Below, piece after piece: positions 39,020-43,814 of a DNA stretch of 64,000 nt (its first letter is position 1; each line of letters begins with the position of its first letter). The notes beneath the pieces were generated by a model that worked only from the letters and a program-made list of their open reading frames with translations, was not told the origin of the DNA and searched no databases. This DNA is from Escherichia coli (GTDB taxonomy: Bacteria > Pseudomonadota > Gammaproteobacteria > Enterobacterales > Enterobacteriaceae): assembly GCF_048403405.1 (NCBI RefSeq), contig NZ_CP183129.1. The stretch is one strand, 5' to 3'. Both the position numbers and the translations under genes were made by a program.

Positions 39020-40157
39020 GTCAGAGCCCCTCGATCTCAATCAGTTAGCGCAAAAAATTAAACAGTGGGGGCTGGAACTGGGCTTTCAGCAGGTAGGTAT
39101 TACCGATACCGATCTCAGCGCGTCCGAGCCCAAACTGCAAGCATGGCTGGACAAACAATACCACGGCGAAATGGACTGGATGGCGCGTCACGGTATGCTG
39201 CGTGCTCGTCCTCACGAATTATTGCCCGGTACGCTGCGCGTGATCAGCGTGCGGATGAATTACCTTCCTGCTAACGCCGCATTTGCCAGCACGCTGAAAA
39301 ATCCCAAACTCGGCTATGTTAGCCGTTATGCGCTGGGCCGTGACTATCACAAGCTTCTGCGCAACCGACTCAAAAAGCTGGGCGAGATGATTCAGCAACA
39401 TTGTGTTTCGCTGAATTTTAGACCGTTTGTCGATTCTGCGCCTATTCTCGAGCGCCCGTTAGCTGAAAAAGCAGGACTTGGCTGGACAGGTAAGCACTCA
39501 CTTATCCTCAATCGCGAAGCCGGTTCGTTCTTCTTTTTAGGCGAATTGCTGGTCGATATTCCGCTGCCCGTGGATCAACCAGTCGAGGAAAGATGCGGTA
39601 AATGCGTGGCCTGTATGACGATTTGCCCGACCGGTGCCATCGTCGAGCCATATACCGTAGATGCTCGCCGCTGCATTTCTTATCTGACGATAGAACTGGA
39701 AGGGGCGATCCCGGAAGAGTTACGCCCGTTAATGGGAAACCGTATTTACGGTTGCGATGACTGCCAGCTTATCTGCCCGTGGAATCGCTATTCACAACTC
39801 ACTACAGAAGACGATTTCAGCCCGCGTAAGCCGCTACACGCACCGGAACTCATTGAGTTATTCGCCTGGAGCGAAGAGAAGTTTTTAAAAGTCACGGAAG
39901 GATCGGCGATTCGCCGTATAGGTCACCTGCGCTGGCTGCGTAATATCGCCGTGGCATTAGGCAATGCCCCCTGGGATGAAACGATTCTGGCGGCGCTGGA
40001 GAGTCGCAAAGGTGAGCACCCACTTCTTGATGAGCACATAGCGTGGGCGATTGCGCAGCAAATAGAGAGACGAAATGCGTGCATAGTCGAAGTGCAATTG
40101 CCGAAAAAACAGCGTCTGGTTCGGGTGATTGAAAAAGGGTTACCGCGTGACGCCTGA
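39018..40157 (+). CDS. queG: Epoxyqueuosine reductase QueG
   Basis: Track ORF from 38910; ATG at 39018 gives MSEPLDLNQLAQKIKQ..., 379 aa; two 4Fe-4S Cys clusters (CGKCVACMTICP, CDDCQLICP). Confidence 0.9.
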
Positions 40158-40426
40158 TTCATCCACAGCTTGTGAATAAAAATAAAAACGCATTGCAATT
40201 CAAGACGAATAAAATCGTCAAGTGATCGACTCGACAAAACGAAATCTTAATTTTTAACTTATCTATCAATAGATTAAAAAAATACTATTCACCGTGCGAA
40301 GTTTCTTTGAAATTAAGATTACGGCCTGAGGCTGTGGATAACTCTGTTTACAAGAGTTTGTCAGAGACAACAAAAACCAGCAATAACGCATCGCGTCGCT
40401 GTGGATATTTTATTGAGAGAAGAATT

Positions 40427-40502
<76 letters not shown>

Positions 40503-40537
40503 TTGGGTGGTCTGTGCTTTACAGCACTTTCAAATTT

Positions 40538-40613
<76 letters not shown>

Positions 40614-40770
40614 TTAATCTTCGTCTTTCGAACCGCTACTGCCTTGGCTGCCTTCACTCACCTTAGTCACTTACTTTTGTAAGCTCCCAAGGATTCGTTC
40701 AGTTGCCGCCTTGTCGCAATTCGAAATACTGCGATTGGGTGGTCTGTGCTTTGCAGCACTTTTCAAATTT

Positions 40771-40846
<76 letters not shown>

Positions 40847-40903
40847 GTACTACTTAATTTTGCTTTCGTAATTTTCGCATTTCTGCGTCGTTACGGGAGG
40901 CGC

Positions 40904-40931
40904 ATTATACGAGAAATCTTTCCCTCTGCAA
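40904..40931 (-). promoter_or_regulatory. Stringent-type sigma70 promoter of the tRNA-Gly operon (-35 TTGCAG, 16-nt spacer, -10 TATAAT, GC-rich discriminator)
   Basis: Minus strand reads TTGCAG-16 nt-TATAAT-GCGCCTCCC about 50 nt upstream of the glyV 5-prime end, with an A/T-rich UP-like tract further upstream. Confidence 0.5.
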
Positions 40932-41056
40932 CCCCCCTAAAAAATTTTTTTTGAGTTTTTATCTCAAGTGCTGAAATTATCAGCAAGACGTTCAATTTAG
41001 CGTCAAAATCACGCCGCCGCAAGTGGATTCCGGCGCTTACGTGACCAGGAAAAATT

Positions 41057-41602
41057 TTACAGCTTGATAAAATGCTCGCGGTAGTAAGCCAGCTCCGCCA
41101 CCGACTCACGGATATCATCCATCGCCTGATGCGTCCCCTGCTTGGTAAAACCATCAAGAATTGCCGGCTTCCAGCGGCGCGCCAGCTCTTTCAGTGTGCT
41201 GACATCGAGATAACGGTAGTGAAAGTAGGCTTCCAGCTCCGGCATGTATTTAAACAGGAAGCGACGATCCTGGCCGATGCTGTTACCGCAAATCGGCGAT
41301 TTTCCCGCAGGCACCCACTGTTTTAAGAATTCGAGCGTTGCCAGTTCAGCTTCACGATCGCCCATTGTGCTCGCTTTCACGCGCTCCACCAGCCCGCTGG
41401 CGGTATGGGTGCGCACGTTCCAGTCATCCATCAGCGCCAGCTGTTCATCAGACTGGTGTACTGCAATGGTCGGCCCTTCTGCCAGAATATTCAGGTTGGC
41501 ATCGGTCACCAGCGTGGCAATCTCAATAATGCGATCGCGCTCGGGATCCAGACCGGTCATCTCAAGATCGATCCAAATCAGGTTGTTTTCATTGGCACTC
41601 AT
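41057..41602 (-). CDS. orn: Oligoribonuclease
   Basis: Track ORF to 41746; ATG at 41602 gives [21 protein letters not shown]..., 181 aa, DEDDh exonuclease. Confidence 0.9.
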
Positions 41603-41696
41603 GCTATTTTCCACCCATTCACAGTGACTATATTGATCCACAATTGCGTGTATCATAGATGTTTTGCCCATCAGGGGCGACCAGGAGTCTGTACGA

Positions 41697-42749
41697 TTGA
41701 GTAAAAATAAACTCTCCAAAGGCCAGCAGCGCCGCGTGAACGCCAATCACCAGCGTCGTCTTAAAACGTCTAAGGAGAAGCCCGACTACGACGACAATCT
41801 GTTTGGCGAGCCTGATGAAGGTATCGTCATCAGCCGCTTTGGTATGCACGCTGATGTGGAATCCGCCGATGGCGACGTTCACCGCTGCAATATTCGCCGT
41901 ACCATCCGTTCGCTGGTGACCGGCGACCGCGTAGTCTGGCGTCCGGGTAAACCGGCGGCGGAAGGCGTAAATGTCAAAGGGATCGTGGAAGCGGTGCATG
42001 AGCGCACCTCGGTGTTGACGCGCCCGGACTTCTACGACGGCGTGAAACCTATTGCCGCCAACATCGACCAGATTGTTATTGTCTCCGCCATTTTGCCGGA
42101 GCTGTCGCTCAATATTATCGACCGTTACCTGGTGGCCTGCGAAACCTTGCTGATTGAGCCGATTATTGTGCTCAACAAGATAGACCTGCTGGACGACGAA
42201 GGCATGGAGTTCGTCAACGAACAGATGGATATCTACCGCAACATTGGTTATCGCGTATTGATGGTTTCCAGTCATACTCAGGATGGGCTGAAACCGCTGG
42301 AAGAGGCGTTGACCGGACGCATCAGCATTTTTGCCGGGCAGTCTGGCGTTGGCAAATCCAGCCTGCTTAACACGTTGCTGGGGCTGCAAAAAGAGATCCT
42401 GACCAACGATGTTTCTGACAACTCGGGTCTCGGTCAGCACACCACGACCGCCGCTCGGCTGTATCACTTCCCGCACGGCGGTGATGTGATTGACTCCCCA
42501 GGTGTGCGTGAGTTCGGCCTCTGGCACCTGGAGCCGGAACAAATCACTCAGGGCTTTGTCGAATTCCATGACTATTTAGGTCTGTGTAAATATCGCGATT
42601 GCAAACACGATACCGATCCGGGCTGCGCTATCCGGGAAGCGGTTGAGGAAGGGAAAATCGCGGAAACCCGTTTCGAAAACTATCACCGTATTCTGGAAAG
42701 CATGGCGCAGGTAAAAACGCGTAAAAACTTTTCTGATACGGATGACTGA
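41697..42749 (+). CDS. rsgA: Small-ribosomal-subunit biogenesis GTPase RsgA
   Basis: Track ORF from 41664; TTG at 41697 gives (M)[12 protein letters not shown]..., 350 aa; circularly permuted GTPase with a C-terminal Zn-binding Cys cluster. Confidence 0.85.
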
Positions 42750-42791
42750 CAATTAAGCTAACCGTCGTTAGAATCGTCCCCTTTTTTTCAG

Positions 42792-42813
42792 GATCCGGCA
42801 TGTAGGCCGGATC
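42792..42813. repeat. REP-like palindrome between rsgA and psd (GATCCGGC-ATGTAG-GCCGGATC)
   Basis: 8-bp inverted repeat containing the GTAGGCCGGAT REP core; no T-tract follows on the plus strand. Confidence 0.4.
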
Positions 42814-42845
42814 AGGAACGACAAAACAATGGCCTGGAGGCTACC

Positions 42846-43814
42846 TTGTTAAATTCATTTAAACTTTCGCTACAGTACATTCTGCCGAAACTATGGCTTA
42901 CTCGCCTGGCGGGTTGGGGCGCAAGCAAGCGGGCAGGATGGTTGACAAAACTGGTTATCGATCTGTTCGTTAAATACTACAAGGTCGACATGAAAGAGGC
43001 GCAAAAGCCGGACACCGCCAGCTACCGCACCTTTAACGAATTCTTTGTCCGTCCGCTGCGTGACGAAGTACGCCCAATCGATACCGATCCGAATGTCCTG
43101 GTTATGCCTGCCGATGGCGTTATCAGCCAGTTGGGTAAAATCGAAGAAGATAAAATCCTGCAAGCCAAAGGCCACAACTACAGCCTCGAAGCCCTGCTGG
43201 CAGGCAACTATCTGATGGCGGACCTGTTCCGCAACGGTACGTTTGTGACCACTTACCTCTCCCCGCGTGACTACCACCGCGTACACATGCCGTGCAACGG
43301 TATTCTGCGTGAGATGATCTACGTGCCAGGCGATCTCTTCTCCGTTAACCATCTCACCGCTCAGAACGTGCCGAATCTGTTTGCCCGTAACGAACGCGTG
43401 ATCTGCCTGTTCGATACCGAATTTGGCCCAATGGCGCAGATTCTGGTCGGGGCGACGATTGTTGGCAGCATTGAGACGGTCTGGGCGGGCACCATTACGC
43501 CGCCGCGCGAAGGTATCATCAAGCGCTGGACCTGGCCTGCCGGGGAAAACGACGGTTCTGTGGCACTGCTGAAAGGCCAGGAAATGGGTCGCTTTAAACT
43601 CGGTTCCACCGTTATCAACCTGTTTGCACCGGGTAAAGTGAATCTGGTTGAGCAACTGGAAAGCCTGTCTGTCACGAAAATTGGCCAGCCGCTGGCAGTA
43701 TCTACCGAAACCTTTGTTACGCCAGACGCTGAACCCGCCCCGCTTCCTGCTGAAGAGATCGAAGCAGAACACGACGCCAGCCCATTGGTTGACGACAAAA
43801 AAGACCAGGTCTAA
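42846..43814 (+). CDS. psd: Phosphatidylserine decarboxylase proenzyme
   Basis: ORF 42846..43814, 322 aa; LGST self-cleavage motif. Confidence 0.95.

Follow-up and report, generated by a model that had tools for sequence, protein, structure and literature searches.

Among the described promoters closest to the one considered here is rrnB P1, which in the sequence used for cryo-EM reads ...AAAATTATTTTAAATTTCCTC TTGTCA GGCCGGAATAACTCCC TATAAT GCGCCACC A(+1). The alpha-CTDs make contact with rrnB P1 at its UP element (-60 to -40), and regulation of the promoter by DksA and ppGpp has been attributed to this UP element, to its G+C-rich discriminator and to a start site that lies 9 nt after the -10 element (PMC7822876). 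More generally, DksA/ppGpp-sensitive promoters have discriminators that are rich in G+C, and the rrnB P1 discriminator confers this sensitivity when it is transplanted (PMC7822876). A second relevant system is the tRNA promoter pArgX. Its open complexes are very stable and DksA on its own activates it, yet ppGpp and DksA together still inhibit it strongly (PMC5137449). Because pArgX behaves differently, the mechanism worked out for rrnB P1 is not simply transferable to tRNA promoters. Further stringently controlled tRNA promoters are tyrT and hisR.

The promoter of the E. coli glyV-glyX-glyY operon, PglyV-X-Y, has itself been dissected in MG1655, in a mutant in which TTGCAG-N16-TATAAT was exactly replaced by an EcoRI site, GAATTC (Kasho et al. 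2024, PMC10950094). In the primers used for this deletion, the retained sequence is ...GGGGGG at one end and GCGCCTCCCGTAACG... at the other (PMC10950094). In the mutant, RNA measured at datA, downstream of the operon, was greatly lowered, and replication initiation was altered (PMC10950094).

We examined a promoter in a 64-kb stretch of E. coli DNA, which we call the window and to whose positions all coordinates refer; the features described lie on its minus strand unless stated otherwise. The genes annotated around the locus are rsgA, orn, three tRNA-Gly genes, yjeV and queG. The promoter has the same neighbours as its K-12 counterpart, with orn upstream and datA and queG downstream. ARAGORN and Rfam identified the three tRNA genes as identical copies of tRNA-Gly(GCC), namely glyV (40846-40771), glyX (40613-40538) and glyY (40502-40427). 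The setting is common to the species: a 681-nt query from the region finds matches of at least 95% identity in 5,425 of 5,426 complete E. coli genomes. Besides the three tRNAs, an Rfam search at E<=1 returned nothing except a sub-threshold match to the Y RNA-like family YrlA (40450-40588; 40.3 bits, where the gathering score is 69). This match spans glyX and glyY, and we rejected it; the tRNA-like module of the YrlA model most likely gave rise to it.

We found that the promoter is identical to that of K-12 MG1655 (alignment with NC_000913.3) from the G-run through the -35 element, spacer, -10 element, discriminator and leader to glyV. We therefore regard it as almost certain that the feature is PglyV-X-Y, the sigma-70 promoter of the glyV-glyX-glyY operon. 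The sequence-only reading had taken it for the promoter of a tRNA-Gly operon, and this assignment was confirmed: the core is that of a known promoter whose deletion lowers downstream RNA, and because the promoter sequences are identical, the deletion and RT-qPCR results obtained in MG1655 are expected to carry over to the present strain. K-12 differs in having A8-C-T6 where an uninterrupted A8T6-A is found here, and in one SNP further upstream. All three differences from K-12 between orn and glyV are located in or beside the upstream A/T tract (40939-40955), and the core promoter is unchanged.

From 40952 to 40847 the minus strand reads AAAAAAAATTTTTT A GGGGGG TTGCAG AGGGAAAGATTTCTCG TATAAT GCGCCTCCC GTAACG...leader...GTAC, followed by glyV. 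The -35 hexamer, TTGCAG (40931-40926), matches the consensus TTGACA at three of its six positions, and it is separated by a 16-nt spacer, AGGGAAAGATTTCTCG (40925-40910), from a consensus -10 hexamer, TATAAT (40909-40904). Directly 3' of TATAAT is the G+C-rich block GCGCCTCCC (40903-40895), comprising the discriminator and the start region, just as had been read from the letters of the sequence; the discriminator proper, GCGCCTCC (40903-40896), has G or C at seven of its eight positions. The same reading had placed an A/T-rich tract upstream of the -35 element. Such a tract does exist, in the form of the UP-element-like A8T6 sequence AAAAAAAATTTTTT at 40952-40939, which lies just beyond the interval (40847-40931) originally assigned to the promoter and is parted from the -35 hexamer by a single A (40938) and a run of six G residues (GGGGGG, 40937-40932). 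In terms of distance from the start, the A8T6 tract occupies approximately -57 to -44, within the UP zone, and the G-run fills -42 to -37, so that the proximal half of this zone is not A-rich. The arrangement is unlikely to occur by chance: TATAATGCGCC is found once in the whole 64 kb, where shuffled sequences give an expectation of 0.03. A generic sigma-70 scan of positions 39500-43000 did not call the promoter site. Because the -35 hexamer matches at only three of six positions, the scan would be expected to miss this promoter, and the miss is therefore not evidence against it.

These elements are highly conserved within E. coli. A match to the 144-nt promoter region was found in 5,425 of 5,426 genomes, and the 50-nt core has a 100% identical counterpart in 5,273 of the 5,426, with 105 more carrying one mismatch. 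For a comparison between species, we used 80 Orn-anchored loci from other Enterobacterales genomes, 71 of which have a tRNA-Gly gene after orn. Exactly one copy of TATAATGCGC was found in 75 of the 80 loci, always on the orn strand and just downstream of orn, and the sequence occurs nowhere else in the approximately 400 kb that these 80 loci span. In all 71 of the orn-linked tRNA-Gly operons, TATAATGCGC lies within 140 nt of the tRNA, and each of the 71 keeps both the extended motif TATAATGCGC(C/A)(T/C)CCCGT and the 16-nt spacer, with flanks that vary. The block after the -10 element is GCGCCTCCCGT in 63 of these loci and GCGCACCCCGT in the other eight, which belong to Serratia, Pantoea, Erwinia, Rouxiella and Winslowiella; the second form of the block is equally G+C-rich. 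The -35 hexamer is TTGCAG in 54 of the 71 loci, TTGCGG in eight and TTGCGA in eight. The tract in the UP zone is rich in A/T in every one of the 71 species, with a mean A+T content of 73%.

When conservation was expressed as mean information content over the 71 loci, we obtained 1.71 bits for the -35 element, 1.83 bits for the 3' part of the spacer and 1.85 bits for the discriminator and start block, against 0.65 bits far upstream and 0.45 bits in the distal leader. Conservation thus reaches 1.7-2.0 bits in the core and 0.45-0.65 bits in the flanks; columns 0-9 of this profile are fixed by the anchor, and the unbiased measure is the occurrence of the motif in 71 of 71 operons and 75 of 80 loci. 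Two conserved stretches lie outside the classical elements. The 3' part of the spacer (GATTTCTCG at 40918-40910 in the present strain, GA(T/A)TTCTCG across species) is almost invariant in the 71 species and is not an extended -10 element, and the G-run that adjoins the -35 hexamer (mean 1.42 bits) is also almost invariant; neither has an obvious reason to be so. The distance from orn to the first tRNA-Gly gene is about 1.0-1.2 kb in Klebsiella, Raoultella, Salmonella arizonae and others, and about 200 nt elsewhere; at loci of the former kind, extra DNA is inserted between orn and the promoter.

The discriminator had also been described, from the letters alone, as typical of stringent control. 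Those features of the promoter that can be tested in sequence agree with this description: they resemble those of rrnB P1, and across Enterobacterales the discriminator is either invariant or equally G+C-rich. By analogy with rrnB P1, we consider it quite probable that the glyVXY promoter is under negative control by ppGpp and DksA, and from the same analogy we strongly infer that it would respond to growth rate. The account that best explains the data as a whole, and one that we hold to be quite likely correct, is that PglyV-X-Y, whose identity, rrnB P1-like architecture and conservation are established, is inhibited by ppGpp/DksA. [quoted passage not shown] Transcription from 7-9 nt after TATAAT would yield a polycistronic precursor made up of a leader with a 5' hairpin, the three tRNAs and the spacers between them, which would then be processed by RNase P and RNase E. 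The whole of this transcript would come under the same control, including the RNA of the repeat element in the first spacer and the read-through into datA that are described below.

In the searchable literature, we came upon no study in which the effect of ppGpp, DksA or growth rate on the glyVXY promoter was measured directly, and the word "ppGpp" is absent from the text of PMC10950094. A published table of regulators leaves glyVXY blank and lists Fis or ppGpp for other tRNA operons (PMC10100675). In the same work, under NaF/ATP-depletion stress, glyVXY falls into a down-regulated cluster with all rrn operons, other tRNA operons and ribosomal protein genes (PMC10100675). This common down-regulation lends correlative support to control by ppGpp.

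It could instead be that the promoter is real and that its main control comes from supercoiling, from Fis or another protein bound upstream, from the level of the initiating NTP or from an activation by DksA like that of pArgX, in which case the conserved discriminator would serve in the choice of the start site or in promoter escape. The stable open complexes of pArgX and its dual response to DksA are what such a view would build on, along with the invariance of GATTTCTCG and of the G-run, for which there is no explanation, and a conserved palindrome upstream that hints at further inputs. We nevertheless think this view unlikely to be correct. The discriminator agrees with that of rrnB P1 at seven of eight positions and the spacer length and -10 hexamer are the same, G+C-rich discriminators are a hallmark of DksA/ppGpp-sensitive promoters and confer sensitivity when transplanted, and pArgX itself is strongly inhibited by ppGpp with DksA.

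The palindrome in question is GCTGATAATTTCAGC, a perfect 15-bp sequence at 40970-40984 whose centre lies about 81 nt upstream of the start, and which is possibly a protein site; at the same position in other genera the sequence is partly conserved. It resembles a Fis site, and we considered this identity and rejected it, as the palindrome fails the Y and R positions of the Fis consensus, GnnYAnnnnnTRnnC (PMC10380432). An exact match to this consensus was not found anywhere in 40932-41060, and a relaxed Fis-like pattern gave 6 matches in the window where 4.9 were expected, which is no enrichment. Fis sites accompany many promoters of the rrnB P1 type, but they do not define sensitivity to ppGpp.

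We next asked where transcription starts and what the conserved block contributes to the RNA. By RT-qPCR, amplicons from upstream of the promoter or from CGTATAATGCG are much rarer than amplicons from GTAACGACG or AACGACG, and the start is therefore bracketed between the -10 element and GTAACG, at 40910-40894 (CGTATAAT to GTAACG; PMC10950094). A T7 template made for the glyVXY precursor begins at CCGTAACG (Kime et al. 2014, PMC3985628), an indication that transcription begins 7-8 nt past the -10 element. The probable start zone, in which the candidate bases are C/C/C/G, covers 40897-40894, 7-10 nt after the -10 element; its counterpart in MG1655 is NC_000913.3 4392309-4392312, approximately 4390332-4390335 when numbered as in U00096.2. 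Searches of the supplements of a Cappable-seq study (PMC4782308) and of an RNase E RNA-seq study (PMC4191395) gave no match to the expected coordinates or to glyV. If the start is at 40896, the 5' leader of the precursor (40896-40847) is 50 nt long. At its 5' end, the leader can form a hairpin (40895-40867), in which CGTAA and TTACG enclose GCA-GAAA-TGC and which is kept across Enterobacterales through compensatory changes, for example from A-U to G-C. For this hairpin, 90.8% of the cells were paired and 20 cells were changed on both sides, values reached by 0 of 500 shuffles; these statistics count two helices that were named beforehand, and so the result depends on the structure chosen. RNAalifold, run on a MAFFT alignment of the leader, predicted no consensus structure. 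The hairpin could have a role in protecting the 5' end or in processing.

These observations bear on a further possibility, which is that the GC-rich block is kept for the sake of the precursor's 5' end, as a start region and 5' hairpin that serve stability or processing, and that the promoter is essentially constitutive. The CCGT of the block does form the 5' arm of the leader hairpin, which has covariation support, and promoter output is constant over the cell cycle (PMC10950094). The second of these points is uninformative about starvation. As for the first, RNA structure cannot account for the invariant GCGCCTC, an untranscribed stretch on the upstream side of the bracketed start. Moreover, the group that includes Serratia and Pantoea changes this sequence only to GCGCACC, which is equally G+C-rich and closer to rrnB P1. 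We therefore judge this possibility to be very unlikely. The invariance of GCGCCTC across these genomes points instead to a constraint on initiation.

Upstream of the promoter, a terminator-like hairpin with a U-run (UUUU) directly follows the orn stop codon at 41046-41005. Its fold energy of -18.7 kcal/mol (z -1.05) is no better than that of shuffles. In MG1655, RT-qPCR gave low levels of orn transcripts, most of which were concluded to end upstream of PglyV-X-Y (PMC10950094). The hairpin is probably the orn terminator and would insulate glyVXY from orn transcription; because the fold energy does not exceed that of shuffles, this role rests on the published RT-qPCR. The weakest alternative is that the motif is a chance look-alike and that the tRNAs owe their synthesis to read-through from orn or to some other start. 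It might appeal to the generic scan that made no call at the site and to the residual read-through from Porn that has been reported (PMC10950094). A motif expected 0.03 times and kept in 71 of 71 syntenic operons leaves it with next to no chance of being correct, and the MG1655 data effectively refute it: when exactly this element is deleted, RNA downstream of the operon is greatly lowered, and by RT-qPCR, RNA upstream of the element is much lower than RNA downstream of it.

The tRNA array of the present strain had also been noted to contain an insert of 120 nt. Alignment with K-12, which lacks the element, places 121 extra nucleotides between glyV and glyX (40736-40616). The sequence of this insert identifies it as an ERIC/IRU repeat: the ERIC2 primer (sequence taken from PMC6066780) matches it at 19 of 22 positions at 40676-40655 (0.00 expected), and the insert aligns with the copy in the K-12 puuR-puuC spacer. 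About seven insert-like places, at roughly 76% identity, are found per E. coli genome. The RNA of the insert is predicted to fold into a long hairpin (-51 kcal/mol, z -4.9), and compensatory changes affect 9 of its 38 pairs. ERIC/IRU repeats are 127-bp imperfect palindromes found in transcribed intergenic regions of enterobacteria. The insert is like other members of this class in forming a long hairpin and in occupying a transcribed intergenic spacer. It is unlike a typical ERIC in lying inside a tRNA operon and in being orthologous across genera rather than recently inserted, and where the ERIC consensus has CCCCAGG/CTGGGG, the insert has CCTTGGG/CTAAGG, a compensated change that marks a diverged subtype.

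Approximately 30% of complete E. coli genomes (1,606-1,622 of 5,426) carry the insert. The same ERIC variant occurs, with orientation and junction (GATTAA|GCGGG) unchanged, in spacer 1 or 2 of the operon in 15 other species, and in one Citrobacter youngae locus it is present in both operon spacers. The species that bear it belong to Citrobacter, Leclercia, Klebsiella, Enterobacter, Kluyvera, Silvania, Superficieibacter and Buttiauxella and include two unclassified Enterobacteriaceae. We considered whether the insert is a recent insertion or a separate gene and rejected both, given that the same variant is found at the same operon junction in many genera. To judge from its distribution, the element is old and appears to have moved between the operon spacers. 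Strains of the K-12 type have most likely lost it, plausibly, as we infer, by recombination between the tRNA repeats. RNA made from the insert is a processed spacer hairpin of the polycistronic precursor and not the product of an independent gene, and because the insert lies within this precursor, its RNA shares the regulation of the promoter trivially. A lesser possibility is that the ERIC hairpin, kept as it is across genera, serves a function of its own, in processing or in the form of a stable RNA.

Downstream of glyY, the operon runs into datA (~40150-40410), a site of DnaA-ATP hydrolysis that contains DnaA boxes (for example TTATCCACA at 40341-40333) and an IHF site region. The leaky terminator or attenuator of the operon, TglyV-X-Y, spans 40409-40371, where it overlaps a DnaA box at the start of datA; we placed it in the interval that the published deletion primers delter_L and delteronly_R enclose (PMC10950094). 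The operon terminator is leaky, and IHF is reported to be displaced from datA by read-through that originates at the glyVXY promoter (Kasho et al. 2024, PMC10950094). A link between starvation and datA by way of the promoter has already been raised by the same authors (PMC10950094). In such a scheme, starvation would reduce tRNA-Gly transcription, more IHF would then occupy datA, more DnaA-ATP would be hydrolysed and fewer initiations would follow. The first link in this chain, a ppGpp-sensitive promoter, is likely, because the rrnB P1-like core is invariant across Enterobacterales. That a ppGpp-sensitive PglyV-X-Y connects starvation directly to replication control is a more tentative idea, possible but on balance doubtful.

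What the locus adds to existing knowledge can be stated in modest terms. The promoter is real, ordinary and already characterised, and its stringent shut-off is a textbook expectation and not a discovery: a known promoter has been re-identified and set beside the decades-old rule by which a G+C-rich discriminator in a stable-RNA promoter goes with stringent control. As an example of that rule it is clean and well conserved, with an rrnB P1-like core that has been frozen across Enterobacterales, and since its output feeds the replication-control locus datA, it bears on the proposed link between starvation and replication.

Compared with rrnB P1, the glyVXY promoter shares the -10 hexamer TATAAT and the sub-optimal spacer length of 16 nt, and both promoters have a non-consensus -35 hexamer, TTGTCA in rrnB P1 and TTGCAG in glyVXY. 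Their discriminators, GCGCCACC and GCGCCTCC, respectively, are identical at seven of eight positions (GCGCC(A/T)CC). The second base after the -10 element is C in both. Haugen and colleagues are said to have found in 2006 that C rather than G at this position makes for a poor contact with sigma region 1.2. Upstream, the UP element of rrnB P1 at -60 to -40 may have a counterpart in the A8T6 tract of glyVXY at about -57 to -44, but the place of the proximal UP subsite of rrnB P1 is taken in glyVXY by the run of six G residues. The two promoters may also differ around the start, which lies 9 nt from the -10 element at rrnB P1 and, as suggested by CCGTAACG, perhaps 7-8 nt from it at glyVXY, and at which the likely initiating base is C or G in glyVXY and A in rrnB P1. 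Furthermore, glyVXY has a single promoter where rrnB has P1 and P2 in tandem, and, unlike rrnB P1, it is without documented or consensus Fis sites. The promoter pArgX, which serves the argX-hisR-leuT-proM operon, resembles glyVXY in being a sigma-70 promoter of a polycistronic tRNA operon, and it differs from promoters of the rrnB P1 type in its unusually stable open complexes and its activation by DksA alone.
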